Of a DNA stretch of 64,000 nucleotides, positions 11,682 to 57,647 are shown piece by piece. The stretch is from positions 76,909-140,908 of the forward strand of contig MGJA01000003.1 in the NCBI GenBank assembly GCA_001794025.1, given 5' to 3'. The position numbers were made by a program, and so were the translations under genes. The notes below the pieces were generated by a model. It did no database searches. It was not told the origin of the DNA and saw only the letters and a program-made list of their open reading frames with translations. Source of the stretch: Candidatus Yanofskybacteria bacterium RIFCSPHIGHO2_01_FULL_41_21 (lineage in GTDB: Bacteria > Patescibacteriota > Minisyncoccia > 2-02-FULL-40-12 > GWA2-44-9). The stretch's first letter is position 1, and the number at the start of each line of letters is the position of its first letter.

Positions 11682-11791
11682 CCCGTTAGAGATGTAACAG
11701 ACCGTCCACCGTCTTGAGGTGGTGGCTAGTTGCAATCATTTTTATATTATTGATTCTCATATTTATACCCGTAGGGTTCATCTCTAACGGG
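11682..11791 (-). repeat. 110-nt TIR element copy 1 (inverted relative to copies 2-5); carries mini-ORF 11686-11781 (-)
   Basis: cccgttagagatg ... catctctaacggg; ends exactly at the ATG of the C-methyltransferase gene. Both stem arms carry a compensatory A>G / T>C change. Confidence 0.9.
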
Positions 11792-28184: not shown

Positions 28185-28574
28185 ATGAAATTCACAAAGC
28201 AAATTAAGCCGGAGTTTGTTGATTCCCGTGGCGGAATCACTAAATTACTTGATGATGGTAAAACAAATATTAAAAGTATTCTGCTTATTACTTCAAAAAC
28301 AGGCAGTATTCGCTCTAATCATTATCACAAAAAAGATGCCCATTATATTTATATGATTTCCGGAGCAATGGAATATTTTGAAAAGCCGGTTAAAGGAAAT
28401 ACTAAAACAAAAAAAGTGGTTGTGAATGCGGGAGATATGGTCTATACGCCACCGATGGCGATTCATACCTCTAGGTTTACAAAGAATTCTGTTTTTATGG
28501 CGTTTTCTATTAAATCTAGAAACCAAAAGGCCTATGAAAAGGATACTATCCGTGTTCCATGTCTGATAAAATAA
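28185..28574 (+). CDS. Cupin-fold NDP-sugar ketoisomerase/epimerase (WxcM/FdtA-like), second paralog
   Basis: IRSNHYHKKDAHYIYMISG His motif; ~129 aa. Confidence 0.55.
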   Translation: MKFTKQIKPEFVDSRGGITKLLDDGKTNIKSILLITSKTGSIRSNHYHKKDAHYIYMISGAMEYFEKPVKGNTKTKKVVVNAGDMVYTPPMAIHTSRFTKNSVFMAFSIKSRNQKAYEKDTIRVPCLIK

Positions 28575-37905: not shown

Positions 37906-39498
37906 TTAAAAATTTCTGGCTATAGTGAGCTTTCCGGTTTTGTTCAATGTCTCGGTTTCAGAACTATAATTCTGCCACGGCATGAGGGTACTGGTGGTAA
38001 AGGCCTGACCGGTGGCGACATAGATTGCCGTAAAATCAGTTGGGACATATATTTTAGTGAAGTTTTTTTCAGTGGTCGTTATTGTGTCTGTCAGGATAAC
38101 CTTACCATGTTGAAATGAAAAACGACGTTCCAGTTTGGTGGCGGTCGATGATTTTGAAACGATAAGTATTTTCTGGAGAATAACTCTAATAATTCTACTG
38201 AACCTTCTACCAAGTCCAAGCGTTATCATCCTGAATACTAATTGTTTGAATGGAGATGGTAGGACTTGAGAATAGTTGTAGAAATTGGCTTCTATGACAA
38301 GTTCTTCGTTTGAAATGGAAAATTCCGGTTCCGCACTCCACATTTGAGAGATGATTTTTTTACCGTTTTGTTTCTCTAATATCAATCCACAATCACTGGT
38401 TATAAGAGTTTCTTTTTGAAAGAGTTTAAAGACCCCACCTTTTTTGATTGAACAGATTAAAAAAGAATCATTTTTGTTTCTAATAAACAGTCCGGCATGT
38501 TTAAATAATTTTTGGTATTCATGGGGTCGTTCCTGATTCGGTAAATTATTATCATGATTTAAAAAGGCCTGGAGATAATTATAAATATAATGGTTGAATA
38601 TCCGATCATCATCAATTCTGGACCGAGTTTTATCAGCCAAACTTTTCAGAAACATATTTCTGATGTAAGTGGCTTCAGGAAATTGGCGAGCGAGGATTTC
38701 AAAACCATTGGGAACAAAATGGGATGTATTGCGGGAACCGTATTCACCGCCATAACTACCGTCGGGGTGGATGGTTAAGAAACAAAAATGGACTGCCTTT
38801 TCAAGGGCTGATTTAATTTCAACATTTTCAGGATTTTTTTGAAGATATTTCGCCAGAAAATCTATCGTGAATGTTAGATAGCCCGGATCACAACCCTCAT
38901 ATTCTTGAAACCATCCCTCCGAAGATTGATAAGAAAGCACTTCTTGTATTTTTTCTTCGGCGTGGAATTTTAATTCCGTGTCTTTAGTAATAAGAAAAAC
39001 ATTATAAAGAGCCAAAGCAGATAAGGCGTGATGATTAGCCAGTATGCCGGATTCTTTTTTGTTTATGATAAACTGGGCCCGTTTTTTGAAAAAGGTCTCT
39101 ATTTCGTTATCTTTAATATCTAATAATAGATACGCTTCGGTGCAGGCATAGAGAGAAAAAGCCGTTGCTCCGAGAGCTTCTTCGTTTGGATAATAATCAT
39201 CGGATGAACCGTTTGAACGAGAACTTGTTTTGGCAAAATTAATCCCGGCCATTACATATTCTTTAATTCGCGAATTGTTAAAATAAACATTTCCAGCAAA
39301 ATCAGTGGTATAGATTAATGCGAGAGTAAGAACACACTCTTCATACATGCCACTTGGAAAATCCTTAGCTTTATAGTGCCAAAATTCCCGGTCAAAACAA
39401 CCGTAGGTCTTGCTGATGGGAGACCGATCAAGTATCTCTAAGATATGAGGAATGTAGGAGAGGGCTTCTTGTAAATAGAGTTCTTTCGGGTAATCCAT
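37906..39498 (-). CDS. Hypothetical soluble protein (~530 aa), possibly an alpha/alpha-toroid polysaccharide-modifying enzyme
   Basis: No confident motif identified by eye. Confidence 0.3.
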   Translation of the reverse strand: MDYPKELYLQEALSYIPHILEILDRSPISKTYGCFDREFWHYKAKDFPSGMYEECVLTLALIYTTDFAGNVYFNNSRIKEYVMAGINFAKTSSRSNGSSDDYYPNEEALGATAFSLYACTEAYLLLDIKDNEIETFFKKRAQFIINKKESGILANHHALSALALYNVFLITKDTELKFHAEEKIQEVLSYQSSEGWFQEYEGCDPGYLTFTIDFLAKYLQKNPENVEIKSALEKAVHFCFLTIHPDGSYGGEYGSRNTSHFVPNGFEILARQFPEATYIRNMFLKSLADKTRSRIDDDRIFNHYIYNYLQAFLNHDNNLPNQERPHEYQKLFKHAGLFIRNKNDSFLICSIKKGGVFKLFQKETLITSDCGLILEKQNGKKIISQMWSAEPEFSISNEELVIEANFYNYSQVLPSPFKQLVFRMITLGLGRRFSRIIRVILQKILIVSKSSTATKLERRFSFQHGKVILTDTITTTEKNFTKIYVPTDFTAIYVATGQAFTTSTLMPWQNYSSETETLNKTGKLTIARNF

Positions 39499-43846: not shown

Positions 43847-44395
43847 ATGATTAAAAAATGGAAAAAATCGGGACCGGAAAAAGTTATACTTGAAAAGTTT
43901 GGTAAATTTTCCAAGAGACAATATTTTGTTGATCCTCGAGACGGGAGCAAGCAGGAATATATATTTGTAGGTGAACAAAATTCAGTCGGTGTTGTCGCTC
44001 TTACAAAAGATAATAAAATAATCCTTACGGAGCAGTTTATGCAAGCTGCCAACGAAGTACTGGTTGAAGTTCCCGCCGGGGTGATTGATAAAGGTGAGAC
44101 CCCATTAATGGCAGTGAAGAGAGAGCTTGAAGAAGAGACAGGTTATGGTTCTAAAAATTTCAAGGAAATCGGAAAATTCATGAGATCAACCAGGAGTATT
44201 CCGACATGTTCGTATTGTTTTTTGGCCACTGATTGCAAAAAGATAAAAAATCCCAAAATTGATAAAGAAGAGGATTTAGGAGTAATAATCAAACCGTTTA
44301 AAAATTGGGTAAAAGAAATTGAAAAAGGTAAAACTCTTGATTGTCTCTCGGTTATCGCCACCTTTTTGGCGGAAAAGCATTTAAAAGATGAATAA
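43847..44395 (+). CDS. NUDIX hydrolase
   Basis: Nudix box GVIDKGETPLMAVKRELEEETGY. Confidence 0.75.
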   Translation: MIKKWKKSGPEKVILEKFGKFSKRQYFVDPRDGSKQEYIFVGEQNSVGVVALTKDNKIILTEQFMQAANEVLVEVPAGVIDKGETPLMAVKRELEEETGYGSKNFKEIGKFMRSTRSIPTCSYCFLATDCKKIKNPKIDKEEDLGVIIKPFKNWVKEIEKGKTLDCLSVIATFLAEKHLKDE

Positions 44396-45521
44396 TAAAA
44401 AGTTAAAAATCGGATGCGTGACGTCATCCGTTTCCTATTATGGTGGGTGGGATACTTTATCAAAAGGGATAGTTGGAGCAGTGGCGAAACAGCACGATGT
44501 CATTGCGCTGACTTCGATGGGTTATAAAAACGACCCGGTTCCATATCCTGTTTATTCCGTTTTACCCCATCATTACATTAGTTTCGGTTTGGGTAATCAA
44601 ATCAGCGTCTTTTGGAATTGCATAAAATATTTCAGAGGATGCGATGCTATCCATACTTTCATTGAGCCATTTACGCCCGGGGCGGCATTTGCAAGTAAGG
44701 TGTTAGGTATACCTCTTTTTATCACACTTGCCGGTACGTATTGTGTGATTCCGAAACACGGTGGTCTGCGGGGTTTTGCGAAACGAACGATGATGAAATT
44801 CATGTACAATCAAGCCAGCTTCATCGCCACCGGTTCATACAAAAATATTGAACTTATTGAAGAGGTAATGTCTCTGGATAAAAAATGGGAATTTGTTCCA
44901 TTCGGTGTTGATCCAGAAAAGTTTAAAATAACCAAGACATACGAACCGTCGCCGTATCCATTTTTATTTACCGTCGGTGAAGTAAAAGCCCGTAAGGGTG
45001 CCGATTATATCATTAAGGCCCTGGCGATTCTGAAAGATGAATTTCCAGACCTTAGATATAAAATTGCCGGTAACGATAAAACGAAACCGAGTTTCGTGGC
45101 GGGTCTCAAAAAATTAATCGTTGAAAATGGTCTTGAAAGCCGGGTGGAATTATTGGGCCGAGTGAGCGAAGAAGATTTATTGCGCTACTATAGTACCTGC
45201 ACGGCGTTCGTCTTGGCTGCTCAAACCATAGATGGGGCGTTTGAGGGATTCCCGATGGTGTTCTATGAATCCCATTCTTATGGCGCGCCCCTGATTGCTA
45301 CTAAGGGCTACGGTTCCGAATATGTTATTAAAGACGGCTATAACGGATTTCTCGTTCCCCAAAACAATGTTGAAGAATTAGTTGTGGCAATTCGTAAAAT
45401 TGTCAGCAACCCCGCTCTTCGTAATGAAATGTCTCAACATGCAATTTCCGAAGCTCAAAAGCATTCTTGGGGTGCTATCAGCGTCCAGTATTTGGATGCG
45501 TATCAGAGGCTAATTAAATAG
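44388..45521 (+). CDS. Glycosyltransferase family 4 (GT-B)
   Basis: FEGFPMVFYESHSYGAPLIATKGYGSEYVIKDGYNGFLV. Confidence 0.75.
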   Translation: MNNKKLKIGCVTSSVSYYGGWDTLSKGIVGAVAKQHDVIALTSMGYKNDPVPYPVYSVLPHHYISFGLGNQISVFWNCIKYFRGCDAIHTFIEPFTPGAAFASKVLGIPLFITLAGTYCVIPKHGGLRGFAKRTMMKFMYNQASFIATGSYKNIELIEEVMSLDKKWEFVPFGVDPEKFKITKTYEPSPYPFLFTVGEVKARKGADYIIKALAILKDEFPDLRYKIAGNDKTKPSFVAGLKKLIVENGLESRVELLGRVSEEDLLRYYSTCTAFVLAAQTIDGAFEGFPMVFYESHSYGAPLIATKGYGSEYVIKDGYNGFLVPQNNVEELVVAIRKIVSNPALRNEMSQHAISEAQKHSWGAISVQYLDAYQRLIK

Positions 45522-45579
45522 GGGATTTCCAATTGGTTTACATTGACTTAGGGCCTATTTTTAGGTACTATCTGATGGC

Positions 45580-46305
45580 ATGTTAGATGAACAAGGAGCG
45601 CAAAATTATTGGGGAAAGCAGGTTGAAAAAGGGGGAATGGAACCCTGTCACTATTTGAATAAATGGCAGGATAAATACGCCTTTGAAATTAGAACATCTG
45701 TTTTTAGAAGAAGTGATTTTCGGGGCCTTAAAAAGATAGTCGATATCGGATGTGGGGTTGGGGACTATACCGCGAAGATGTTCAAGCTTATTGATAGTGA
45801 TGCTCATATAGTTGGTTTTGATTTCCCTTTTAATATTGAAATTGCCCGCAAGAAACATAGGGATTTAAAGAACATTGTTTTCAAAGAAGGTTCGGTACCC
45901 GATGAAAACATTGAGTCGGACATAAAAAGCGCGGATGCGGTTATCATGACCACCGTCTATACCCATTTGACACCAGATTCCCGAGAAATTTTACTGGGCT
46001 ATTTTGAAAAAATGAAATCCGGTGCGAAAATGTTTATTCTGGAATATTTTCCCGAAGTTGTGCCGGAGTTTCAGAAGAATCAAGCCCATAAGATCGTTGA
46101 ATCATCTAAAGAAGTCCAGGTTCGTTTTATAAACCATGGTCTCCAGGTATTAGAAGTCCGTCCCGTTAATTATATTGATAGTTTCCTGTTCTTCCATTGG
46201 GGTAAAAATTGGTTCGTGTATTTTATAACCAAATGGCTGGATAATTTTGTTAGAGTTTTTAAATATTATCGTTCAAAATACAAGTTAATTATTTTTACAA
46301 GATGA
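45580..46305 (+). CDS. Class I SAM-dependent methyltransferase
   Basis: VDIGCGVGDYTAKMF. Confidence 0.65.
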   Translation: MLDEQGAQNYWGKQVEKGGMEPCHYLNKWQDKYAFEIRTSVFRRSDFRGLKKIVDIGCGVGDYTAKMFKLIDSDAHIVGFDFPFNIEIARKKHRDLKNIVFKEGSVPDENIESDIKSADAVIMTTVYTHLTPDSREILLGYFEKMKSGAKMFILEYFPEVVPEFQKNQAHKIVESSKEVQVRFINHGLQVLEVRPVNYIDSFLFFHWGKNWFVYFITKWLDNFVRVFKYYRSKYKLIIFTR

Positions 46306-47402
46306 AAATACAATTTCTATCGCCAAACTTAAATAAAAAAGATATCCAAGAAGCTGTCAAAGTTCTTAAATCGGGCTGGATTACCTATGGGCCGGTGACC
46401 GAAAAATTTGAAGAAATTTTTGCCGGATATGTCGGATCTAAAAAAGCGGTTTTTAATTCCAGTGGCACGGCGGCTCTGCACGTGGCGTTATTGGTAGCTG
46501 GTGTTGGTCCTGGCGATGAAGTCATCACAACTCCTCTTTCATATGTGGCAACCAGCAATGTTATTTTATATGTCGGTGCTACACCCGTATTTGTGGATGT
46601 GGATGCAAAGATGGGTCTTATAGATCTTAATAAAATTAAGGGAGCAATCACATCCAAAACCAAAGCTGTTATCCCGGTCCATTTATATGGCCAGATGGTG
46701 GATATGAAAAAGTTAAAGAAGATCTGTGGTGCTAAAATTAAGATTATTGAAGATTCGGCTCATGCTATTGAATCCGAACGGGATGGCATTAAACCTGGCC
46801 AGTTAAGTTTCGCATCTTGCTTCAGTTTTCATGCCGCAAAAAATATAACTTCCGGAGAAGGCGGAGCAGTTACGGTTAATGATGATAAATTGGCTCACGA
46901 ATTAAAATTATTGTGTGAAGGTGGAGTAGAAAGAACGAGTACGGGAAGGTTCATGACTTTATTGGGATATAAATATTCAGCCACAACTTTCCAGGCGGCG
47001 ATGTTGATTTCTCAGATGAAGCGTATCAATTCCGATTGGAAGAAGAGAAAAATTTTATGGGAACGTTACAAAAAGGGTTTAACTGGAGTTGCGGGTGTTT
47101 CTTTCCCTGAACAAGTACCAAACTCACGGCATGGATATAATATGTTTGTTATTTGGGTTGAACCGACCCGTCGAGATATACTAAGGGAAAAACTTGGTCA
47201 AGCCGGTATTCAAACATCCATTCATTTTAATCCGATTCACTTGGAACCACATTACAAAAAATCATTCGGTTATAAAAAAGGCGATTTTCCGGTTACTGAA
47301 AAACTTGGATTTTCCTCTATTACACTTCCTCTCCACCAAAAACTGACGAAAGAGAATCAAGATTACATAGTAGATAAAATTAAGGAATTATTGGAGGTCT
47401 AA
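46302..47402 (+). CDS. DegT/DnrJ/EryC1/StrS-family PLP-dependent sugar aminotransferase
   Basis: SSGTAALHVAL ... SFHAAKNITSGEGGAV (PLP Lys). Confidence 0.85.
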   Translation: MKIQFLSPNLNKKDIQEAVKVLKSGWITYGPVTEKFEEIFAGYVGSKKAVFNSSGTAALHVALLVAGVGPGDEVITTPLSYVATSNVILYVGATPVFVDVDAKMGLIDLNKIKGAITSKTKAVIPVHLYGQMVDMKKLKKICGAKIKIIEDSAHAIESERDGIKPGQLSFASCFSFHAAKNITSGEGGAVTVNDDKLAHELKLLCEGGVERTSTGRFMTLLGYKYSATTFQAAMLISQMKRINSDWKKRKILWERYKKGLTGVAGVSFPEQVPNSRHGYNMFVIWVEPTRRDILREKLGQAGIQTSIHFNPIHLEPHYKKSFGYKKGDFPVTEKLGFSSITLPLHQKLTKENQDYIVDKIKELLEV

Positions 47403-47406
47403 ATAT

Positions 47407-48141
47407 ATGGCAAAAAAAATAAGACAACGTATTGTCAATTTTTTTATAGATATCTTAAGTAAACCCTCAATTAGATATCGGTTCCTGTTGCCTTTGTCCA
47501 CGCTAATTTCAAAAAATCCTGATGAAGAGATATTGGAAAAGGCAATGAAATTTGCGGCTCATGTCGGTATAGGTGGGGATTATCTGGAATTTGGTGTTTG
47601 GAAAGGGCGCTCATTTGCTCGGGCGTATCATATGAGAAAATATATTAAAGACGCCAAACTTAACGGTATGAAATTTTATGCCTTTGACTCGTTTCAGGGT
47701 TTACCCGAAATAAAAAATGAACATGACACCAGTTCTTCCGAATTTAAAAAAGGTGATTACGCCTGCGACATAGGAACATTTAGACATAATCTTATCAATA
47801 AAGGTGTTGATCTTAAGGAGGTAACAATTATTCCCGGCTGGTACGAAGAAACTTTGAATGAAGAGACCAAAAATAAGTTGTCTCTTAAAAAAGCGTCAAT
47901 TATTTTTGTTGATTGCGATATTTATGAGTCAGCCGTTTCTGTTCTTAATTTTATAACCGATTATGTGGTAAATGGTACAATTATCATTTTTGATGATTGG
48001 TTTGCTTTCAGTGGCGACCCCGAAAAAGGTGAACAACGGGCTTTTAAAGAATGGTTGGAACGCAATCCAAATATCAAGGCCGTTGAATGGCAAAGAGTAA
48101 ATTGGAAAAGCAATTCGTTTATCTTAAACAAATCCCGTTAG
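47407..48141 (+). CDS. TylF/MycF-family sugar O-methyltransferase
   Basis: GDYLEFGVWKGRS ... IFVDCDIYES ... GTIIIFDDW. Its stop codon TAG lies inside the 5' TIR of repeat copy 5. Confidence 0.75.
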   Translation: MAKKIRQRIVNFFIDILSKPSIRYRFLLPLSTLISKNPDEEILEKAMKFAAHVGIGGDYLEFGVWKGRSFARAYHMRKYIKDAKLNGMKFYAFDSFQGLPEIKNEHDTSSSEFKKGDYACDIGTFRHNLINKGVDLKEVTIIPGWYEETLNEETKNKLSLKKASIIFVDCDIYESAVSVLNFITDYVVNGTIIIFDDWFAFSGDPEKGEQRAFKEWLERNPNIKAVEWQRVNWKSNSFILNKSR

Positions 48142-48243: not shown

Positions 48244-49617
48244 ATGGATAGGCCAACCATATTTTTATCAAATTTTCATCCGTTTGTAACCAAGAATACT
48301 TTAAATTCCGGTGTTTTGGATGCCTTAGCTTCTCAATCTAAGGTTATTATTTTAGTTAGTAAAGAAAAGGAAGAATATTTTAAACAAATCTATGAAAAAG
48401 AAAATATTATTGTTGAGGGGATTAATTTAGACCCGTATATTAAAAGCGGTAAGAATAAAATTTTCATTCGTTTATCGGAATTACTGTTGGATACAAACGT
48501 GACCAGATTCCATCAGATGGAAGCATGCGTAAAAGACGGCAATTGGTTTAAATATTATTTCTTTCGGGCTTTCACAAGGACCTTGAGTCATTTTTTATTA
48601 TTTAAAAAATTAGTCCACGTGCTTGACTTTAAGATTGATAACCCAAAACCTTTCCAAAACATTTTTGAACATTACAAACCGCTGGCGGTTTTTGCGACCG
48701 ATGCTTTCGGGGATCACGATGTTTTTTTACTGAAAAATTCCAAATCTGCCGGAATAAAAACTATAGCTATGGTCCGTTCATGGGATAATACGACATGCCG
48801 TGGCTATCTGCGTTTCGTACCGGATAAACTTATAGTTCATAATGAGGTTATGAAAGCAGAGATGGTTAAATATCACGATATTGATATAGACACTATCAAT
48901 CTTAGTGGTGTGCCTCAATTTGAAAAATATATAGGTCTGAAAGCAAGTCCTAGAGATGAATTTTTTAATAGGATTGGAGCTAATCCGAATAAGCGTATGA
49001 TTTTATTTACGCCGGCCGGACAGTTTTTTATAGATTCCGACTGGCAGATATGCCAAATTCTTAAAGAACTTTATCTTGAGGAAAAGATTCCTCAAGATGT
49101 TCAATTTGTCGTGCGATTGCACCCATTTTTGCCAGTAGATTTATTAAGTTTTGAACCGGATGAAAATTTTATTATTGATGTGCCCGGTCCGGCAAAATTC
49201 AATAAACTGGAGAAAGACAAAAAAGAAGGTGAATTAGACACATTTTTCTTTCAACATATTTATGATTCTATCTATCATGCCTCGCTTGTCATCAATACAA
49301 TATCGTCAATTATTATTGATACGGCTATTTTTGATAAACCATTGATTACGATTAATTTTGACGGTTGGTTAAAAGACCCGCCCTTGCTGAGGAGTATATT
49401 GAAGCGTTGGCGGTTTGAGGAAAACCAGATTAATTGGATGAGTATCGGTTCTACGCGTCTGGCCGGAAGCAAAGAGGAATTGGCGAAATGGATTAATGAG
49501 TATCTTGAGCATCCGGAAATTGATCATGATAAAAGAGAAATTTTCAAACAGAAATACTGTTGGAAATATGACGGGAAATCGGCGGAAAGAATTGCCTCAA
49601 TTGTTCTGAGTAACTAA
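48244..49617 (+). CDS. Polysaccharide/teichoic-acid-type biosynthesis protein (TagB/TagF- or capsule-synthesis-like GT-B), uncertain
   Basis: Weak resemblance (MILFTPAGQFF ... VRLHPF). Confidence 0.35.
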   Translation: MDRPTIFLSNFHPFVTKNTLNSGVLDALASQSKVIILVSKEKEEYFKQIYEKENIIVEGINLDPYIKSGKNKIFIRLSELLLDTNVTRFHQMEACVKDGNWFKYYFFRAFTRTLSHFLLFKKLVHVLDFKIDNPKPFQNIFEHYKPLAVFATDAFGDHDVFLLKNSKSAGIKTIAMVRSWDNTTCRGYLRFVPDKLIVHNEVMKAEMVKYHDIDIDTINLSGVPQFEKYIGLKASPRDEFFNRIGANPNKRMILFTPAGQFFIDSDWQICQILKELYLEEKIPQDVQFVVRLHPFLPVDLLSFEPDENFIIDVPGPAKFNKLEKDKKEGELDTFFFQHIYDSIYHASLVINTISSIIIDTAIFDKPLITINFDGWLKDPPLLRSILKRWRFEENQINWMSIGSTRLAGSKEELAKWINEYLEHPEIDHDKREIFKQKYCWKYDGKSAERIASIVLSN

Positions 49618-49636: not shown

Positions 49637-50350
49637 ATGTCTAAAGTTATTACCATCATCCCCGCCCGGGGCGGAAGCAAAGGGGTACCAAGAAAGAACA
49701 TTAAGTCCCTGAACGGCAAACCCTTAATTGCTTATGCTATAGAAGCTGCCCTAAAATCAGGCGTTATTGACCGGGTTATTGTCTCAACTGAAGACAAAGA
49801 AATAGCCGAAGTGGCGAAGCAGTATGGGGCTGAAGTCATTAATCGTCCTGAAGATTTGGCGGGAGATAAGGTAACACTTGACCCGGTTATAAAGCAGGCC
49901 TTGGAGTTTTTGGAGACACAGGAAAATTATATTCCTGATTTTGTATCGTGTATTCAACCGACTTCCCCGTTATTGAAGTCGGAAATAGTGAAGGCGTGCG
50001 TTGGTAAAGTGGTAGATGAAGGTTTTGATTCATGTATTGCAGCTTTTTTACCCGATACATATGAATGGAAATGGAAGCCGGTATACGATGTATCGGGAAA
50101 AGAGATTTCTTTTGAACCGGAGTTTCCGGTTATGCAACGAGTTGTACGGCAGGATTTGCCCAAGGTCTATCATGAGAACGGAGCTTTTTATATCACAAAG
50201 TTATCATTATTTAAAAAAATCGGTCATCGTTGGGGCGGGAAAATGGCCGTGGTTGAAATGAGCGAAGAGGACTCCATTCAGATTGATAATCTGAATGAAT
50301 TTTGGATGATTGAACAGATTTTAAAGAGAAGACAAGGCGAAGTACAATAA
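49637..50350 (+). CDS. Acylneuraminate (nonulosonic acid) cytidylyltransferase, NeuA/LegF/PseF family
   Basis: IIPARGGSKGVPRKN ... GKPLIAY ... QPTSPL. Confidence 0.8.
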   Translation: MSKVITIIPARGGSKGVPRKNIKSLNGKPLIAYAIEAALKSGVIDRVIVSTEDKEIAEVAKQYGAEVINRPEDLAGDKVTLDPVIKQALEFLETQENYIPDFVSCIQPTSPLLKSEIVKACVGKVVDEGFDSCIAAFLPDTYEWKWKPVYDVSGKEISFEPEFPVMQRVVRQDLPKVYHENGAFYITKLSLFKKIGHRWGGKMAVVEMSEEDSIQIDNLNEFWMIEQILKRRQGEVQ

Positions 50351-50365
50351 TAATTATTTAAAAAA

Positions 50366-50392
50366 GTCCCGCCGGTGGTGTGCCGGCGGGAC
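50366..50392. terminator. Stem-loop terminator (gtcccgccgg-tggtgtg-ccggcgggac), U-tract on - strand
   Basis: 10-bp GC stem between convergent genes; A-run immediately upstream. Confidence 0.7.
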
Positions 50393-50409
50393 AAGGAAAG
50401 GTTCCAAAA

Positions 50410-52212
50410 CTACAGAGAAAGGATATCAAGTGTCCGACCGTTGTCGATACACTCTCTAACCTTAAGGAACTGATCGTTAGACATGTCACTGAAGTTGAGA
50501 GGTTCGCCCCCGACTTCAAGGACTTTTGTAGCGTCGTCCAGCTCCCGAAGATAATGGTGAAACTTTTCATCCATTACAGGATCCCATTCCACGATATTGG
50601 GATTGGTGGCAACTCGTTGGAACGACAGTCCGAACACGCGTGAAAGCTCGGCGCGGACTTTGTTGTTATTGATGAGGGTTACCCCCGGATACCAGGTCAT
50701 CGTGAACATTCGGGAGTTTACCGCTTCAGGTTTGGTTCCGAATTGCGAGTAGTACTCCATTTGCCATTGAATGAAGCGGACACTTTCTTGTACGTCTTTA
50801 ATCTTTTCAGTGGGTGAGCCGACAATCCAAGTACAATTGCCGTGGATACCGACCCGGGCTGCTTCTTGGATACCGACAATCATGGATGTAGGGAAGGAAT
50901 GCTTTCTCCCGCCGACCATAACCTCGGTGAAACCGTTGGTTAACGTGTGGCCACCTTTGCCGATGGCTTCCAGTACTTTTGCGCTGGCACTTTCGGGACC
51001 GAAGCCGATATATTTGCATCCGGCCTTGGCCATTATTTCGGCGGTGCCTTTCGTGGTTGCATTGAGACCGGCGACTTCATCAAGCCGAGTGTGGGTACCC
51101 CAGGCGACCAGGTTATTCAGATCCTTAATTCGACTAAGGGTAACCGCAAAATTGTCGTCGGGAAATCCATGAAACTTAATGTCGTAGCGTTCAATATGTT
51201 CCATGAGCTCTCGCATGATATGTCCCGCTGAACGGACACCCCAATTGCGTTCGCCTTGGGTCTTACGAAAGCAGTACTTACAACCGAACGGACAACCACG
51301 ACTGGATACCGACGTGGTTTTGGGAACCACATCTTTATCCTGCCAAGGTGCCGCAGATGAATTATTGGCGTTTGCACTCCAGGCCGGTACTTGCAGGTAC
51401 CAATCAAGGAGAGGATTGCCGTCAACATCCTCACGTAGAAGCTCGAGGTCGACGAAGGGGAGAGCGTCCAAATCTTTTGGTCGATCTCCCGCATATACGA
51501 AGCGATGTCGATCCCAAACTTTACCAATGTAGTAAGGTTCCAACTTGTCACTTGCAACAGCACTTCTCCATCCCTGTTGTTTGATGATTTTCGCATCGTG
51601 CACGATTTTGACAATGATATCGTCTCCTTCGGAATGAGCGGCCGCGTCAAGCTCGGGGATATAAAAAAACATACCCATTTTGAGCTCAGTCGCAAGACCG
51701 CCACCGGAGACAATGAACACATCGGGCAGAATGTTGCGGACCATCTTAACAACTTCTTCCTGCCACCTAAGCGTTGTGATTTTACCCGACAATGCGACGA
51801 GTTCAGGTTCGCCATGCCGAGCGATGTGACGTCGGATAAGTCCGAACGTTTCCTCTCCAGAAAGATGACGACCATGAACGAGACCTCGTTTTTTGGCGGT
51901 CTCATCTTTGATGCGATATGCATTCAGGTCAATAATCGTCGCATTGACACCGAATTCTTTACGAAGGCGGGTGACCAGAAGGAGTGGTCCTTCCGGTGTA
52001 GTGTTCGGGCGAGCTGATTCACGCAAGGGCATGTTGATGAACAAGACCTTAGCATCGGCAATTTCTCGGCGGGTGATGTTGGCGATGATATCTGCGGGGT
52101 GCGTGTGAGCACTGACCACAGGTACGAAAGGAGCGACAGGTAGAAGGGTTGTGCTCACAGTAACCTCACTTTCTTTGAGTTTTAAAGGGACTATTCCCGA
52201 AGCAATTATCAT
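50410..52212 (-). CDS. B12-binding (cobalamin-dependent, class B-like) radical SAM enzyme, putative sugar C-/unusual methyltransferase
   Basis: SRGCPFGCKYCF CxxxCxxC ~300 aa from the N-terminus, preceded by a B12-binding-like domain. Gene is visibly GC-richer than all neighbours. Confidence 0.7.
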   Translation of the reverse strand: MIIASGIVPLKLKESEVTVSTTLLPVAPFVPVVSAHTHPADIIANITRREIADAKVLFINMPLRESARPNTTPEGPLLLVTRLRKEFGVNATIIDLNAYRIKDETAKKRGLVHGRHLSGEETFGLIRRHIARHGEPELVALSGKITTLRWQEEVVKMVRNILPDVFIVSGGGLATELKMGMFFYIPELDAAAHSEGDDIIVKIVHDAKIIKQQGWRSAVASDKLEPYYIGKVWDRHRFVYAGDRPKDLDALPFVDLELLREDVDGNPLLDWYLQVPAWSANANNSSAAPWQDKDVVPKTTSVSSRGCPFGCKYCFRKTQGERNWGVRSAGHIMRELMEHIERYDIKFHGFPDDNFAVTLSRIKDLNNLVAWGTHTRLDEVAGLNATTKGTAEIMAKAGCKYIGFGPESASAKVLEAIGKGGHTLTNGFTEVMVGGRKHSFPTSMIVGIQEAARVGIHGNCTWIVGSPTEKIKDVQESVRFIQWQMEYYSQFGTKPEAVNSRMFTMTWYPGVTLINNNKVRAELSRVFGLSFQRVATNPNIVEWDPVMDEKFHHYLRELDDATKVLEVGGEPLNFSDMSNDQFLKVRECIDNGRTLDILSL

Positions 52213-52313
52213 ACCAGAAAATTAATTAAAATCAAGTTATTTCTTGACGTAATCAATTTTTTATATTACTTTATTACACGAATGTCCCTTGAAAACTTAT
52301 AAGGAGAATGTTG

Positions 52314-53030
52314 ATGTCTAAGCATAGAATCGTGACCATCATCCCCGCCCGGGGCGGAAGCAAAGGAGTGCCAAGAAAAAACATCAAGCTTTTGAACGGT
52401 AAACCCTTAATTGCTTATACCATTGAGGCCTCCCTAAAATCAGGCGTTATTGATAGAGTCATTGTTTCAACGGAAGACAAAGAAATAGCCGAAGTCGCAA
52501 AACAATATGGCGCTGAAGTCATTGTGAGACCTTCTGAGCTCGCTCAGGATCACTCATTGACCGACCCAGTCATGTTGCATGCGTTGGAAGAGTTAGAGAA
52601 ATCAGGGTACTATCCCGATTTAATTTCTCTGATTCAACCGACGTCACCGCTCTTGAACGCAGAATCGATTAAGATTGCGGTTGAAGCGGTTATCCAAAGG
52701 AATTTTGATTCATGTTTTACCGCTTTTTTGCCGGGAGGGTATGAGTTCAAATGGAGACATGTTGAAAAAGGAATTTTTGAACGTGCGGATTATCCATTGG
52801 AAAAAACTCCTCGCCGTCAGGATTTGCCAAAAATCTACCATGAAAATGGTGCATTCTACATAACTCGGACCGACCTTTTCAAGAGAACGGTAAATCGCCT
52901 TGGGGGAAGCAACGCTCGAATCTCTCTGGTTGAGATGAACCTAGAGGATTCTCTTCAGATTGATACTGTCTACGACTTCTGGCTTATTGACCAGATTTTA
53001 AGGAAAAGAGAGGAAGAAAACAGTGACTAA
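52314..53030 (+). CDS. Acylneuraminate cytidylyltransferase, second paralog
   Basis: N-terminal 68 aa and ~200 nt nearly identical to 49637-49840, remainder ~50% identical. SD aaggag 7 nt upstream of ATG 52314. Confidence 0.8.
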   Translation: MSKHRIVTIIPARGGSKGVPRKNIKLLNGKPLIAYTIEASLKSGVIDRVIVSTEDKEIAEVAKQYGAEVIVRPSELAQDHSLTDPVMLHALEELEKSGYYPDLISLIQPTSPLLNAESIKIAVEAVIQRNFDSCFTAFLPGGYEFKWRHVEKGIFERADYPLEKTPRRQDLPKIYHENGAFYITRTDLFKRTVNRLGGSNARISLVEMNLEDSLQIDTVYDFWLIDQILRKREEENSD

Positions 53031-54213
53031 AAAAGTAGAAGATATGCCCGGTACTCCGCCTCATCAGAAAAAAGCATTTTCTTGTAAGAGATACAGAGAA
53101 AATATCACCCCAGTTTCAATCCGAAAGCTTATTGTTTTGGTGGAATTGGAGAAACAAAATAGACGGTCTCCGTATTCAGAAAAGGTCCTGGCCGGTGTAA
53201 TTGATTTTCTTCTGAATACCGATTTTCATAATCTTGAAGGTCGGGGAATGAAGAAATCTTTTGCCAGGACCGAGCTTGAAACAGCCGTTTCTTACCTGGA
53301 TGAAAATCTTACTATCCAGTACCTGGTCTATCGGTACAAGTTTGCCGTCTATTCGGTAAATAGGATTGTGAATGATTTTCCTATTGTCTTGGCCATTGAA
53401 CCGACCAGTTTGTGTAATCTCAAATGTACGATGTGCTTTCAAGCGGATAGGTCGTTTTTCACATCCAAACCTCTGATGGGGTTTATGGATATGGATTTGT
53501 ACCGTCGTATAATTGATGAGGCCAATGAACATCAGTTGTGTTCTATTGTTTTGGCGAGTAGAGGTGAGCCCATGCTTCACAAAAACCTCGCCGAGATGAT
53601 TAGGTATGCAAACCGAAAAAGAATCATTGATGTCAAACTCAATACCAACGCGACTCGTCTTACGGAAGAAAAAAGTAGGGAGTTGCTTGAAGCAGAACCA
53701 AAGACCCTCGTTTTTTCCGTAGATGCTGGCAACAAGGAAGAGTTTGAAGCCATTCGGGTTGGAGCTGATTTTGATAAGGTTGTTCAGAACATCACCAGAT
53801 TCAATGATATTCGGGCGAAAGAATTTTCTCACTCTCAAACGAGAACCAGGATCTCAATGACCGTTTTTCGCGCCACTCAAGATGTCAAAGAAGCCGAAAA
53901 TTGCTGGTCTGGGTTGGTGGATGAATTTGCGGTTAATCCTTCCGACTATCGGTTGGATATTTACGAGCATCCGCCCCTGCCGGACGAAACTAAGGCCTGC
54001 AGTTTGTTGTGGGAACGACTCTATATCTGGTGGGACGGGAAAGTAAATCCTTGCGATATTGACTACAAGTCATGTCTGCACTTGGGTACTGTTGACGAGA
54101 ATACATCAGTGCAGTCCATTTGGCTCGGCGAGAAAATGCAATCCTTGCGGAAGAGCCATAGTGAAGGACGCAAGAATGACAATTACCCGTGTAGCCAGTG
54201 CTACGGATCCTAG
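53023..54213 (+). CDS. Radical SAM enzyme with C-terminal SPASM/twitch Cys cluster
   Basis: CNLKCTMCF plus C-terminal CDIDYKSC ... YPCSQC. Confidence 0.7.
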   Translation: MTKKVEDMPGTPPHQKKAFSCKRYRENITPVSIRKLIVLVELEKQNRRSPYSEKVLAGVIDFLLNTDFHNLEGRGMKKSFARTELETAVSYLDENLTIQYLVYRYKFAVYSVNRIVNDFPIVLAIEPTSLCNLKCTMCFQADRSFFTSKPLMGFMDMDLYRRIIDEANEHQLCSIVLASRGEPMLHKNLAEMIRYANRKRIIDVKLNTNATRLTEEKSRELLEAEPKTLVFSVDAGNKEEFEAIRVGADFDKVVQNITRFNDIRAKEFSHSQTRTRISMTVFRATQDVKEAENCWSGLVDEFAVNPSDYRLDIYEHPPLPDETKACSLLWERLYIWWDGKVNPCDIDYKSCLHLGTVDENTSVQSIWLGEKMQSLRKSHSEGRKNDNYPCSQCYGS

Positions 54214-54222
54214 GGGGTTATT

Positions 54223-55239
54223 GTGAGTAAACATTATCACGGAGTATTGTGGATAGGATTTGGGAGTTTCGCTAAACGACTCCTGCCTTATGTAGAGGAA
54301 TATCCCGGTGTCAGGATAAAAACGTATTTTCATCCCGACCGGGAAGAAGCGATAAAAAGGTTCGGCTCTAAGGCCAGCTGGGATATCGATGAGGCGATGG
54401 CCGATCCGGAGATTACTACGGTGTTTATCACGACACCAAACGATCTTCATTCCGAGTTTATCAAGTCCGCTCTTCTGGCCCGGAAACATGTGTTTGTGGA
54501 AAAACCGATAACCGCTTTCTACAGAGAAGCTGTTCAACTTTTGCCCACTATTCGTGCCAGTAAGTCGGTTTTGGCCGTGGGTCATCACATGAGACGCGAA
54601 GCCACTATCAGAAAAGCAAAGGATATTATTTCCGAGGGTGGTATCGGAAGAATTGTCAGCGTATATGCCAATCATTCTACTGGGTTCGCCTTTAATATGG
54701 ATAAGACCAACTGGCGGTTTTTCTCTTCCCGACATCGGGAAGGGCCGTTATTGACGGTTGGCGTCCATCTTGTGGAAGTATTGCATTACCTTTTGGGTCT
54801 GGTGGACTCTGTGTCGGCCGTGATAAAAAATCGTTCACTTCGGACGGATGCTCCGGATTCTAACGCGGTATTGTTGAGTTTCAAGGGTGGCGCTTCTGCT
54901 TTCCTTGAATCCAACTACAGCGTGTTATCCGAAAGCATGTTCCATATTCACGGTACGGAAGGTACGATTTATATAGATCGGGGGCAGTTACGGTTGCGTG
55001 TGGGACGCGATGTGGATAGGATTCCCACTGTTCCCTGTCTGATTCCATTGAACCCAGTCAATCCGTTTAAGGAAGAGATTGACGAATTTTTTGATGTAAT
55101 TGAAGCGAAAAAATCCACACCAGAAACCGGCTATCAAGAAGCCGTAAACGCTTTAGCGGTAATCGAGGCCTGTTACCGAAGTTCTTTGAAAGAAAAGATT
55201 GTAAGTATGAAATCTTTTCGAGGGTACTATTCCAAATGA
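54223..55239 (+). CDS. Gfo/Idh/MocA-family oxidoreductase
   Basis: GTG start preceded by AGGGGG SD; VFVEKPIT, Rossmann N-terminus. Confidence 0.7.
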   Translation: MSKHYHGVLWIGFGSFAKRLLPYVEEYPGVRIKTYFHPDREEAIKRFGSKASWDIDEAMADPEITTVFITTPNDLHSEFIKSALLARKHVFVEKPITAFYREAVQLLPTIRASKSVLAVGHHMRREATIRKAKDIISEGGIGRIVSVYANHSTGFAFNMDKTNWRFFSSRHREGPLLTVGVHLVEVLHYLLGLVDSVSAVIKNRSLRTDAPDSNAVLLSFKGGASAFLESNYSVLSESMFHIHGTEGTIYIDRGQLRLRVGRDVDRIPTVPCLIPLNPVNPFKEEIDEFFDVIEAKKSTPETGYQEAVNALAVIEACYRSSLKEKIVSMKSFRGYYSK

Positions 55240-55304
55240 CCAACCGTCGGTTACACCGATGGTTGGTCATTTATTTATTTTATAGCATGGATACCCCAAC
55301 AACC

Positions 55305-56588
55305 TTAGGTTCTATGTTTTCTAATCTCGGTCTCCAATAAATAGAAATTGTGAATTATGTTAACGATATAAACTATTAATATAGAAGCAATCACTCCCCA
55401 TATTCCATATAATCTGCCGAGAACTATATAGAGAGTTATTTTAATAATACTGGCACCTAAACTACTGTAATATAAAGGACGAACCATTTTATGGGCGCTA
55501 AAAATTCCGCTTATGTAATTGGCTGGAAGAGCAAATATCAGTGTAAGAGAAAAAACCTGTGAAAAGGTTATGGCATCCAAATATTTAGGCAGGAAAATTT
55601 TATAAAAAATCGGGGACAAGAGAATGTATGTGGCACTCATTAATGTTCCGATTAACATTCCTTGAAATACTCTCTTGTAAAAACTTTTATGGATATCCTC
55701 AAATGTTTTTTCAGCCAGTTTTGGCATTATCATAACGCCTAAATTTTTTACATATCCCCGTATCCTTTCCGGAATTGCCAGAGCCAAACCATATACCGCC
55801 AACTCAATAGCCCCCAGATAATGGAAAATTACAAGCTTATCAACGTATTGGGCTATACCGGATAAGACGTGCATGAAACTTAGGTGTCCAGTGTAGGTAA
55901 GGAGTTCTGTTTTTTGTTTTTCTTCTAGAATGATTTCGGACTTATGTAATTTAAGGGTTCTAAAATAAAAAAACAAAGTTGGACCAAGAATTGAAAGCGC
56001 ATAGGTTATAACTAAAGTAAATATATCATTCGTAAGTAGTGCCACTGTTATCAAAGATATTATTTGAATGGAGGAAGAAATGGTTCCATAGATTGAGCCT
56101 CTTTTGAAGTCCTTTTTTCCGGTCAAAAAAGCGCCGTAAGTATTAAAAGTGGTAGCCAGAGGAAAGGTAATTCCTAAAACAAATAAACATTTAGCTAATA
56201 GATTATTGCTGTTAAGAAAATAGTAGACGGATAATCCGGTTAAGACCGCTGAGAATATGAAGTTCCATTTAAGTTGAATTTTGACCGCATAGGAGAGTAT
56301 AGACGAAGAACCAGATTTTGCGGTGGCTTGGGCAACGGCATCATTCATGCCCGTAAGAGTAAGAAAAGAAAATGCGCCAGCTAAAGATAAAATGTATTTA
56401 TACGTGCCGTATGTTTCTTTCGGTAAAAAATTAGCAAAAACAATGACTTGAACCAAGCCAAGGATAGAACTTAAAAAAAATGCTGCCGTCAACCAAAAGC
56501 CACCCCGGGCAAGATAGAGAGTGTCAACATGCAGGTATTCTTGCAATTTAATAAGTGAGTTTTTGATTTTTTGTTTGACAGAAAACAT
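55305..56588 (-). CDS. Wzx-type polysaccharide flippase (MOP superfamily)
   Basis: 12+ TM helices; N-terminal polysaccharide-biosynthesis-protein pattern. Confidence 0.6.
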   Translation of the reverse strand: MFSVKQKIKNSLIKLQEYLHVDTLYLARGGFWLTAAFFLSSILGLVQVIVFANFLPKETYGTYKYILSLAGAFSFLTLTGMNDAVAQATAKSGSSSILSYAVKIQLKWNFIFSAVLTGLSVYYFLNSNNLLAKCLFVLGITFPLATTFNTYGAFLTGKKDFKRGSIYGTISSSIQIISLITVALLTNDIFTLVITYALSILGPTLFFYFRTLKLHKSEIILEEKQKTELLTYTGHLSFMHVLSGIAQYVDKLVIFHYLGAIELAVYGLALAIPERIRGYVKNLGVMIMPKLAEKTFEDIHKSFYKRVFQGMLIGTLMSATYILLSPIFYKIFLPKYLDAITFSQVFSLTLIFALPANYISGIFSAHKMVRPLYYSSLGASIIKITLYIVLGRLYGIWGVIASILIVYIVNIIHNFYLLETEIRKHRT

Positions 56589-56780: not shown

Positions 56781-57647
56781 ATGGCAAAAGTGATGATTGG
56801 GAAGACGTTGGTTGGGTCTACCAAACCATGTTTCGTGGTTGCCGAAATCGGCATTAACCACAACGGCAGTTTGGAAATCGCCAAGAAACTGATTGATATG
56901 GCGGTCGAGGCGGGATGCGATGCCGTCAAGTTTCAGAAGCGGACCATTGACGTGGTCTACACGGCCGCGGAGCTTGCCAAGCCAAGGGAAAGCATTTTCG
57001 GTGAAACAAACGGTGATTTGAAACGCGGTCTTGAATTTGGTCGCAAACAGTACGAAGCGATTGATGCCTATTGTCGGGCAAAAGATATCTTGTGGTTCGC
57101 GTCCTGCTGGGATGAAGACAGCGTCAGTTTCATCCGGCAGTTTGATCCGCCATGCTACAAGATTGCGTCGGCATCGTTAACGGATGATGACTTGCTCGCG
57201 TATACTCGTGATCAAGGTAAGCCCATTATCCTTTCCACGGGGATGAGTACTCTTGAAGAGATTTACCACGCTGTCCGTATTTTGGGACGTAGTGAACTCG
57301 TGATTCTCCATGCGGTATCAACCTACCCATCGGAGGACAGAGACACAAATCTCAAAGTCATGGGCACGTTGCGTAAGAATTTCCCCGGAGTGCCTATCGG
57401 ATACAGTGGTCACGAGAAAGGAATTTCTCTGACCCTTGCAGCCGTGGTTATGGGAGCATGCATGGTTGAACGCCACATCACGTTGGAGAGAATGATGTGG
57501 GGTTCTGATCACTCCGCCAGTTTGGAACCCGAGGGGCTCAAAAAAGTTGTTCGGGACATTCGGAAGTTTGAATTGGCCCGAGGTGATGGGGTCAAGCGAG
57601 TTCTGCCGGCAGAACTTCCGATTAAGAATAAGCTCAGGAGGAAGTAA
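56781..57647 (+). CDS. Nonulosonic acid synthase (NeuB/LegI/PseI family), short form apparently lacking the C-terminal SAF domain
   Basis: KPCFVVAEIGINHNGSLEIAKKLIDMAVEAGCDAVKFQKR; canonical SD AAGGAG 8 nt upstream. Confidence 0.8.
   Translation: MAKVMIGKTLVGSTKPCFVVAEIGINHNGSLEIAKKLIDMAVEAGCDAVKFQKRTIDVVYTAAELAKPRESIFGETNGDLKRGLEFGRKQYEAIDAYCRAKDILWFASCWDEDSVSFIRQFDPPCYKIASASLTDDDLLAYTRDQGKPIILSTGMSTLEEIYHAVRILGRSELVILHAVSTYPSEDRDTNLKVMGTLRKNFPGVPIGYSGHEKGISLTLAAVVMGACMVERHITLERMMWGSDHSASLEPEGLKKVVRDIRKFELARGDGVKRVLPAELPIKNKLRRK

Follow-up and report, generated by a model that had tools for sequence, protein, structure and literature searches.

Gene conversion between paralogs, cassette swapping in glycan loci and class B radical S-adenosylmethionine (SAM) enzymes are all well known. 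The surfaces of Candidate Phyla Radiation (CPR) bacteria mediate their episymbiotic lifestyle. The DNA considered here is a 64,000-nucleotide stretch (the window) of contig MGJA01000003.1 from Candidatus Yanofskybacteria bacterium RIFCSPHIGHO2_01_FULL_41_21, an uncultured groundwater member of the Patescibacteria (CPR). Our subject is a gene for a B12-domain radical SAM enzyme (rSAM) together with cyt1 and cyt2, the two cytidylyltransferase genes between which it lies in antisense orientation. Comparison with related loci suggests that rSAM is a long-standing resident, that the genes particular to this lineage are cyt2 and the two genes following it, and that cyt2 itself is a chimera. Taken as a whole, the explanation that we find probable is that the region forms the core of an ulosonic-acid (sialic-acid-like sugar) module within a surface-glycan locus of >60 kb.

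The class B radical SAM enzymes TokK, CysS, Fom3, GenK, TsrM and OxsB are the nearest described counterparts of rSAM. Like them, it has a putative N-terminal Rossmann domain of the cobalamin type, followed by a CxxxCxxC barrel, it keeps the AxS, GG and GE positions of the cobalamin motifs, and its best fold and sequence matches among solved structures are found in this group. Unlike them, it stays below every specific NCBIfam cut-off, shares only 12–15% identity with the solved members, has different lower-axial residues and stands in a new context, NeuB-type ulosonic-acid synthesis in Patescibacteria. AprD4, the apramycin 1,2-diol dehydratase that works with the reductase AprD3, has a comparable two-domain fold (TMt 0.64) and acts on a sugar, and its partner oxidoreductase is encoded nearby, which recalls the short-chain dehydrogenase/reductase (SDR) genes of loci related to ours. 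AprD4 is not known to use cobalamin, however, whereas the rSAM family keeps the cobalamin motifs.

The cytidylyltransferases resemble the CMP-nonulosonic acid synthetases NeuA, PseF and LegF. Both are full-length CTP_transf_3 proteins, solved CMP-Neu5Ac synthetases match them with E = 1e-34 to 1e-28, and, as in Pse/Leg clusters, their genes lie near those for NeuB, an aminotransferase and a dehydratase; they differ in that both score below the PseF cut-off, that there are two paralogs per NeuB and that one of them appears to be recombinant. Gene conversion in O-antigen and capsule loci offers a parallel for the latter, with a short homogenised tract, co-resident paralogs, a sharp breakpoint, lowered synonymous divergence (dS) and phylogenetic incongruence. 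In our case, by contrast, the tract coincides with the nucleotide-binding module, the event is old (86% identity, dS 0.74) and not ongoing, and the genome is a CPR one. A further radical SAM enzyme encoded downstream of cyt2 shares with dehydrogenases of the BtrN type an auxiliary-cluster C-terminus of the SPASM/twitch type and a carbohydrate context. Its similarity to BtrN is weak and confined to the radical SAM core, and it differs in its length of 396 aa, its full SPASM domain and an N-terminal extension of 115 residues. A literature search found neither this rSAM family described nor any B12-type radical SAM enzyme linked to NeuB-type ulosonic-acid synthesis, and no account of such an rSAM–NeuB module in the CPR.

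The radical SAM gene and its place beside NeuB

At 90% clustering, rSAM has at least 754 homologs, and every named one comes from a Patescibacteria, Yanofskybacteria or Parcubacteria metagenome-assembled genome. An exhaustive profile search returned about a dozen full-length clusters at 50% identity, followed by a sharp drop to generic class B enzymes. Searching genome contigs with the single rSAM protein yielded one locus (L007), and an alignment search of metagenome contigs gave mostly generic class B enzymes (21–28%), with true orthologs only in L008–L013. A NeuB-type gene lies within ~7 kb of rSAM in 14 of 16 ortholog loci (the window, L007/L090, L008, L009, L010, L012, L088, L089, L091, L092, L093, L095, L096 and L097), with rSAM identities of 45–86%; in the remaining two, L011 and L013, the contigs end at rSAM. 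A cytidylyltransferase gene is present in 11 of the ortholog loci, and in L010 it forms a tight operon with rSAM and NeuB.

The elements of the window on which the comparison draws are the following:

48244–49617, plus strand: TagF-like putative transferase (Pfam PF04464, Glyphos_transf; weak NCBIfam match BFO_1060), immediately 5' of cyt1
49637–50350, plus strand: cyt1, putatively resident cytidylyltransferase of the CMP-ulosonate type, 237 aa (CTP_transf_3, Pfam PF02348)
49652–49840, plus strand: exchange tract, cyt1 copy (codons 6–68, CTP-binding module)
50366–50392, minus strand: terminator-like hairpin, 10-bp stem with 9 GC pairs, then a T run (consensus scan only)
50410–52212, minus strand: rSAM, B12-domain radical SAM enzyme of class B architecture, 600-aa open reading frame (ORF) (Pfam Radical_SAM and weak B12-binding)
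52213–52313, no strand: AT-rich divergent intergenic region between rSAM and the cyt2 operon, from the sequence
52314–53030, plus strand: cyt2, probable chimeric cytidylyltransferase (ORF from 52308, 240 aa; Pfam CTP_transf_3)
52335–52523, plus strand: exchange tract, cyt2 copy (match to 49652–49840)
53023–54213, plus strand: radical SAM/SPASM enzyme, here SPASM (Pfam Radical_SAM and SPASM), with an 8-nt overlap with the cyt2 stop
54223–55239, plus strand: GFO/IDH/MocA NAD(P)-dependent sugar oxidoreductase, here GFO (Pfam), final gene of the cyt2 operon
55234–55272, plus strand: terminator-like hairpin closing the cyt2-SPASM-GFO operon, 18-bp stem (consensus scan only)
55305–56588, minus strand: flip1, MOP-family flippase, AT-rich with GC 0.352 (NCBIfam; Pfam Polysacc_synt)
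56781–57647, plus strand: NeuB-type ulosonic-acid synthase, 288 aa, GC 0.502 (Pfam NeuB domain)

The position of rSAM between the two cytidylyltransferase genes, as given by the original prediction, agrees with both the ORFs and Pfam. An assembly artefact was ruled out, as the same arrangement occurs in six independent metagenome contigs from aquifer and groundwater at 99.9–100% identity.

The closest relative, L092, has nearly the same order of genes:

Window: TylF-TagF-cyt1-rSAM(-)-[cyt2-SPASM-GFO]-flip1(-)-NeuB
L092: TylF-TagF-cyt1-[MT-unk250]-rSAM(-)-[unk192]-flip1(-)-[HAD]-NeuB

Genes shared by the two are 67–82% identical (rSAM 80%, cyt1 82%, NeuB 79%, flip1 68%), and TagF, which precedes cyt1 in both, is 73% identical. 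Orthologs of cyt1 adjoin rSAM in L092 (82%) and L093 (74%), and rSAM itself occupies the same site, with syntenic flanks, in L092, L088, L089 and L091. We therefore regard rSAM as very likely a positionally conserved resident of the module and not an insertion. The lineage-specific unit appears instead to be the cyt2-SPASM-GFO operon, on the upstream, divergent side of rSAM. At the site of this operon the relatives carry other tailoring genes (HAD phosphatase, SDR, unassigned ORFs); no GFO homolog was found in any related locus compared, and for SPASM only distant homologs were found there. Pfam returned nothing beyond methyltransferase folds for the unassigned ORFs that accompany rSAM in the relatives. 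Since the relatives carry a single cytidylyltransferase in the stretch fetched, the two-paralog state would be derived.

Gene boundaries fit this division. One terminator-like hairpin stands right after the rSAM stop, inside the 59-nt convergent gap to cyt1, and the other 3' of the GFO stop, which suggests a monocistronic rSAM and a separate cyt2-SPASM-GFO operon. Within the latter, cyt2 and SPASM appear to be translationally coupled through their 8-nt overlap. The true start of rSAM is probably the GTG at 52158, giving ~582 aa, since GAGG precedes this codon, the lengths of orthologs fit and residues 1–34 of the structural model are disordered; that of cyt2 is likely the ATG at 52314 (238 aa), since an AAGGAG site precedes it.

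The original prediction had seen in rSAM a compositionally foreign gene that was inserted between two paralogs already in place, possibly together with a cytidylyltransferase of its own. Composition does set the gene apart: its GC of 0.498 and GC3 of 0.511 compare with gene means of 0.388 (sd 0.040) and 0.363 (sd 0.061), the baseline being the window's glycan genes and not the host genome average. The whole window has a GC of 0.387, the GC3 z-score of rSAM is ~+2.4 within it, and GC and GC3 together place the gene roughly +2.4 to +2.8 sd out, so its composition is indeed atypical relative to the window genes. An insertion would also agree with the antisense orientation of rSAM to both neighbours, with the 189-nt direct repeats on its flanks and with its monocistronic appearance and own terminator. 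Nevertheless, we consider it very unlikely. Orthologs sit at the same position in the four loci named above and NeuB linkage is nearly constant; the relatives, as said, have one cytidylyltransferase; no tRNA, integrase or transposase gene was found in the window; and the excess of GC3 is shared by all related loci tested (z = +1.6 to +2.6 in 8/8). A genomic island delivered with a tRNA gene or mobile element was likewise rejected, there being no tRNA gene or mobility-gene Pfam match in the window. Cassette acquisition, which had been proposed as well, was right in spirit and wrong as to the genes, the lineage-specific ones being those of the cyt2 operon and not rSAM.

Nor is rSAM alone in its GC-richness, as had been implied. 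NeuB reaches 0.502, and GFO (0.459), SPASM (0.437), cyt2 (0.434) and cyt1 (0.420) follow, so that 49.6–57.6 kb forms a GC-rich patch broken by the AT-rich flippase gene. In L007, L008, L088 and L089 the GC of rSAM exceeds that of its own locus by +0.08 to +0.16, and in related loci NeuB is often GC3-rich too. Four-fold sites differ by 61–74% among rSAM orthologs, which amounts to saturation, yet GC4 holds at 0.45–0.62. Because the GC3 excess recurs in all related loci despite saturated silent sites, GC-richness looks to be a maintained trait of the gene family and not the scar of a recent import. Part of the contrast stems from the AT-rich glycan locus; in L007 the locus without rSAM has 40% GC and rSAM 49%, and the host genome has 43%, a figure that we take from the label 'FULL_43_17' by the naming convention. 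For genome scanning this is a cautionary case, in which a strong compositional anomaly is no sign of a recent insertion. We also noticed that NeuB is GC-rich in relatives (L089:5991-6863, L092:15328-16194), with GC3 up to 0.70, and that the compositional anomaly is thus common to both conserved core enzymes, rSAM and NeuB.

Residency in a stricter sense meets some resistance. Compared with the window, L091 is 63–84% identical over the block from TylF to NUDIX, 54% in rSAM and 35% in TagF; the composition baseline is, as stated, a local one; and it is conceivable that homologous recombination between related CPR genomes has replaced the rSAM allele. The L091 figures point to blocks of the glycan locus having different histories, that is, to exchange of blocks between lineages, and because the locus is such a mosaic, 'resident' here means positionally conserved and not strictly vertical. 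The block in question, L091:13439-17733 against window 43847-48141, holds TylF, DegT, methyltransferase (MT), GT1 and NUDIX genes.

The shared 5' tract of the two cytidylyltransferase genes

Positions 49652–49840 and 52335–52523 form an ungapped match of 189 nt. With its 26 mismatches, nucleotide identity is 86.2%, and amino acid identity is 92%. Exact runs of 32, 18, 22 and 23 nt lie within the tract, as the original prediction had noticed, although 'near-identical' overstates the similarity of the first ~200 nt. For the remainder, which it put at ~50%, identity is 58% in nucleotides and 51–52% in amino acids. In a set of 6,786 homolog pairs, N-tract identity averages 0.663 (sd 0.061) where the C-terminal parts are 50–55% identical. 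The cyt1/cyt2 pair, at 0.923, exceeds the trend by 4.5 sd (residual +0.27), and only one other pair ranks higher. Toward its own orthologs cyt1 shows 83% identity both in the tract and in the C-terminal part, that is, less in the tract than the 92% it shares with cyt2.

Silent sites tell the same story. For cyt1 and cyt2, a dS of 0.74 within the tract compares with 2.5 outside it (dN 0.029 and 0.435, respectively); between cyt1 and its 82% ortholog, dS is saturated within the tract and 2.1 outside it. Where cyt1 and cyt2 have identical residues, the codons are also identical at 41/60 sites (68%) of the tract and 38/80 (47%) of the rest (P = 0.016); for all other pairs pooled, the tract value is 145/447 (32%; Fisher exact test against 68%, P = 1.3e-7). 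A maximum chi-square of 42 places the breakpoint at aligned nt 204; mismatch is 16% to its left and 42% to its right, and 0 of 2,000 permutations reached the observed value. Incongruence was judged by a bootstrap nearest-neighbour test. Only in the tract does each of the two genes have the other as its nearest neighbour (~95% of bootstraps), and in the C-terminal part their nearest neighbours differ (P0123 at 0.83 for cyt1, P0143 at 0.63 for cyt2), so the signal along the paralogs is not uniform. A dedicated search of 5.8 billion proteins with the C-terminal 168 residues of cyt2 gave a top match of 64% identity; this part is 56–64% identical to another subfamily and 51–53% to the cyt1 clade. 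Altogether, we are confident that a tract exchange made cyt2 a chimera, in which the N-terminal module is cyt1-like and the C-terminal two-thirds belong to a different subfamily; this bears out the recombination at the 5' ends that had been proposed. Both genes are under strong purifying selection (dN/dS ~0.04).

One could imagine that no recombination took place, and that cyt2 is a local duplicate of cyt1 whose C-terminal part evolved fast through neofunctionalisation while the N-terminus was held. No other part of the family is in fact as well conserved as the N-terminal ~65 residues (identity ~0.66 at a C-terminal identity of ~0.5), and in several KdsB structures the best-matching stretch of cyt2 covers only residues ~7–72. 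Conservation of protein would leave the differences in dS and in codon identity standing, and cyt1 would not be expected to resemble cyt2 in the tract more than its own 83% orthologs. Moreover, a fast-diverged duplicate of cyt1 is excluded because the C-terminal part of cyt2 shares up to 64% identity with another subfamily but only 52% with cyt1, and less with the cyt1 clade too. Plain duplication and divergence is therefore, in our opinion, highly improbable. For the chimera, the KdsB matches have another meaning: since several of these structures match residues ~7–72 only, the tract would be a nucleotide-binding module common to the superfamily, and its exchange would for this reason have been tolerated.

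Upstream of the cyt1 and cyt2 start codons, comparison found no similarity, so the exchange appears to be an internal patch. A weaker 3' patch, at window positions 50250–50341 and 52927–53018, is 75% identical over 92 nt, with amino acid identity of only ~50–55%; this could be a second exchange tract that is older or has eroded.

As for the direction, cyt1 looks unaltered, because the identity of its tract to orthologs (0.83) equals that expected from the C-terminal 0.83. The cyt2 tract, in turn, has an identity of 0.765 to the cyt1 clade, close to the level within that clade (0.76) and not to the level between clades (0.65). Transfer from cyt1 to cyt2 is thus somewhat favoured, but what tempers it is that the direction depends on 63–65 residues with a bootstrap support of ~0.9. 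The exchange must be old given the tract dS of 0.74, and at the same time it appears to be younger than the split from the L092 lineage, the closest one sampled.

The same exchange might have had cyt2 as the donor, or the tract might be the crossover joint of an incoming cyt2-SPASM-GFO cassette. Besides the limited support for direction, one may cite here that the tract is mixed in its affinities, IVSTED being closer to the cyt2-like relative L094 and EIAEVAK..GAEVI to the cyt1 clade, that P0183 paired with P0151 and P0163 also combines high N-terminal with low C-terminal identity, and that L097 holds a 162-nt 5' partial duplicate of its cytidylyltransferase. A single joint, though, would not leave an intact cyt1 2.68 kb away, there is the lack of upstream similarity, and the cyt1 tract is exactly as close to its orthologs as expected. 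We consider these variants unlikely, and keep gene conversion or homologous exchange from cyt1 into cyt2 as the preferred course.

It appears that the 5' ends of these cytidylyltransferase genes are prone to recombination in general. The partial 5' duplicate in L097 and the similar high-N, low-C pairs in the family suggest that the breakpoint is recurrent. In L097 a 162-nt direct repeat (L097:9841-10002 and L097:10527-10688, 91% identity) makes a 109-aa 5' cytidylyltransferase fragment, which lies directly 5' of the full gene and beside the rSAM ortholog. Over its first 44 aa the fragment agrees with the full gene at 98% identity, and the repeat takes in 34 nt upstream of the start. A duplication of this kind, promoter plus 5' end, was rejected for the window, where the tract stops short of the upstream region. 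P0183 was found in the same sample as the window contig (ERZ4903072); its N-terminal identity to P0151 and P0163 is 0.91–0.94 and its C-terminal identity 0.54–0.56. The P0183 locus encodes KpsS/KpsC-like Capsule_synth, a methyltransferase, the cytidylyltransferase, HAD and NeuB, and a 617-aa ORF in it is a Wzy/TPR protein, not an rSAM. Co-residence of a high-N, low-C pair was sought on its contigs (L098, L099), each of which has one cytidylyltransferase.

In a hyper-mosaic locus, next to the swap of a cassette, cyt2 represents an exchange of a module, in which the nucleotide-binding part is common and the sugar-binding part distinct.

Proposed roles of the enzymes

Pfam recognises the radical SAM domain of rSAM with confidence (PF04055, 51.9 bits versus a cut-off of 29.5), and the CxxxCxxC cysteines C307, C311 and C314 are invariant in 37 homologs; the structural model and its fold matches are in keeping with a partial TIM barrel. 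A profile of the rSAM family has its best match in the cobalamin (Cbl) domain of TokK (E = 5.5e-9). ALS140-142, GG170-172 and SEG194-196 align to the ALS, GG and GEG motifs of TokK, which correspond to the Ala-x-Ser loop, Gly-Gly and Gly-Glu as defined for such domains (PMC9204698). Within the family S142, G170, G172 and G196 are invariant, S194 and E195 nearly so, and the positions of the TokK lower-axial Tyr and Trp are taken by Lys144 and Thr146. The AlphaFold (AF2) model has a pLDDT of 86.7 and matches the folds of TsrM, OxsB (TMq 0.53), TokK, CysS, MgmA and AprD4, all of them at 12–15% identity. By sequence, AprD4 matches the radical SAM core only (E = 2e-4).

Some homologs of rSAM are much longer, 886–919 aa (P0082, P0095 and P0277), and P0082 and P0095 carry LAGLIDADG (PF14528). 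In P0082 a ~340-aa intein is inserted exactly at the third Cys of CxxxCxxC, which corresponds to C314 of the window enzyme. In two relatives a second, shorter B12-binding radical SAM gene adjoins the rSAM ortholog (L091:6484-7905 and L097:11376-12899); the encoded proteins of 473 and 507 aa are ~24% identical to the window enzyme.

Given its constant company, rSAM likely acts in the NeuB pathway. The neighbouring genes that supply precursors differ between loci (HAD, SDR, SIS, AKR, transketolase, aminotransferases, or SPASM with GFO), whereas rSAM, NeuB and the cytidylyltransferase stay, and for this reason we infer that rSAM works on the ulosonic-acid scaffold common to them or on its CMP ester. 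Among class B enzymes, Fom3 methylates a CMP-activated substrate and shows that such activation can be a requirement (PMC8158854), and by analogy the pairing of rSAM with a cytidylyltransferase suggests that it, too, may act on such a substrate. As to the reaction, C-methylation of the sugar was a reasonable suggestion of the original prediction, and it stays our tentative choice.

Several observations weigh against so definite an assignment, which is drawn from sequence, fold and context. The Pfam B12-binding model PF02310 reaches 22.5 bits, below its cut-off of 32.1, though many rSAM orthologs do carry a precomputed match to it. The specific NCBIfam families of class B enzymes (PhpK, BchE, HpnJ, BzaD and RiPP C-methylases) all remain far below cut-off, the best being BchE with 52 versus 481 bits and PhpK with 50 versus 600 bits. 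AprD4, a diol dehydratase independent of cobalamin, is among the top fold matches, and on that account methylation is not secured. Finally, any substrate named for cyt2 is conjectural, as a single NeuB has to serve both cytidylyltransferases.

It is quite conceivable, if on balance rather doubtful, that rSAM is no methylase and performs other radical chemistry on the sugar, such as 1,2-diol dehydration of the AprD4 type with a reductase, epimerisation, or rearrangement of a ring or carbon skeleton of the OxsB type. The presence of both AprD4 and OxsB among the best fold matches, the miss of every methylase-specific NCBIfam model and the replaced lower-axial residues would agree with this, as would the SDR reductase gene that adjoins rSAM in L088, L089, L091, L095 and L097 and stands at the edge of L096, and the GFO oxidoreductase nearby in the window. 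SDR is, on the other hand, absent from the window and from L092, the positions of the cobalamin motifs are invariant, the best sequence match is to the cobalamin domain of a methylase, TokK, and most annotated cobalamin-dependent enzymes of the radical SAM type seem to be methylases (PMC9204698).

The cytidylyltransferases pass the CTP_transf_3 cut-off of 22.6 bits easily (103 for cyt1 and 107 for cyt2). Their best NCBIfam match is PseF (TIGR03584), with 161.8 and 170.0 bits, respectively, below the cut-off of 205.7, and the solved relatives nearest to cyt2 are CMP-Neu5Ac synthetases over the full length. NeuB of the window is also below equivalog level (NeuB_NnaB 262 versus 399.65 bits, PseI 198 versus 340) and with its 288 aa is ~40 residues shorter than the NeuB/PseI models (~329 positions). 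GFO-family enzymes are NAD(P)-dependent sugar dehydrogenases, and BtrN is the closest solved relative of SPASM by sequence (E = 1e-8, a weak match); by analogy the pair would suggest oxidation or epimerisation of a sugar hydroxyl.

These pieces can be arranged into one scheme, in which residency, operon and chimera come from comparative sequence analysis and the steps of the pathway are what we infer. rSAM has very likely stood for long beside NeuB and usually beside a cytidylyltransferase as well. The cyt2-SPASM-GFO operon sits in the place held in relatives by other tailoring genes, and the 5' patch of cyt2 (codons ~6–68) was in all likelihood homogenised with the resident cyt1, while the sugar-binding C-terminal parts stayed distinct. 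NeuB would make an ulosonic acid, and cyt1 and cyt2 would CMP-activate two different acids, the parent one and a variant arising from it through oxidation or epimerisation by SPASM and GFO. rSAM would carry out a radical tailoring step on the acid or its CMP ester, with cobalamin-dependent C-methylation at an unactivated carbon as the leading candidate, and the TagF-like enzyme and glycosyltransferases would install the modified acid.

The most valuable lead is, in our view, the uncharacterised NeuB-linked rSAM family, compact and sharply delimited as it is. Speculatively, it may modify an ulosonic acid, free or CMP-activated, by a radical reaction not described so far; C-methylation of an unactivated carbon in the common C1–C3 or core part would be one example. 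Patescibacteria would then bear a new class of sialic-acid-like sugars on their surfaces. If true, conservation of rSAM at 53–86% identity across the Patescibacteria sampled, its maintained GC-rich codons and repeated intein invasion at the Fe-S motif would mark a key, highly expressed enzyme of the surface glycan, and Patescibacteria, with their tiny genomes, would have to scavenge cobalamin. rSAM, NeuB and the cytidylyltransferase make up an expressible target set for new sugar chemistry.

The surrounding glycan locus

The 64-kb window as a whole is a glycan super-locus, in which Pfam, NCBIfam and tRNA scans found no housekeeping, tRNA or mobility genes. 5' of cyt1 there are, apart from the TagF-like transferase, genes for TylF- and other methyltransferases, a DegT aminotransferase, GT4, a NUDIX hydrolase and an epimerase/dehydratase. 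In two related loci, thiamine diphosphate (ThDP) enzymes (transketolase-like, acetolactate-synthase-like, E1) and SIS isomerases are encoded beside the rSAM–NeuB module (L093:379-4210 and L097:3970-5952), which hints at unusual or branched aldose precursors.

Five ORFs of 200–600 aa in the window have no Pfam match: 3813–5324 (minus strand), 34405–36222 (plus), 37906–39498 (minus), 260–979 (plus) and 27420–28058 (minus). The last two are GC-rich, 0.45–0.46. Elsewhere in the window are two genes for sugar C-methyltransferases of the Methyltransf_14 type, at 10452–11735 (minus strand) and 28559–29818 (plus strand), along with genes for an AT3-SGNH acyltransferase and for three glycosyltransferases of the PMT_2 (GT-C) type. 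Conventional enzymes, too, are likely to methylate and acylate the glycan heavily.

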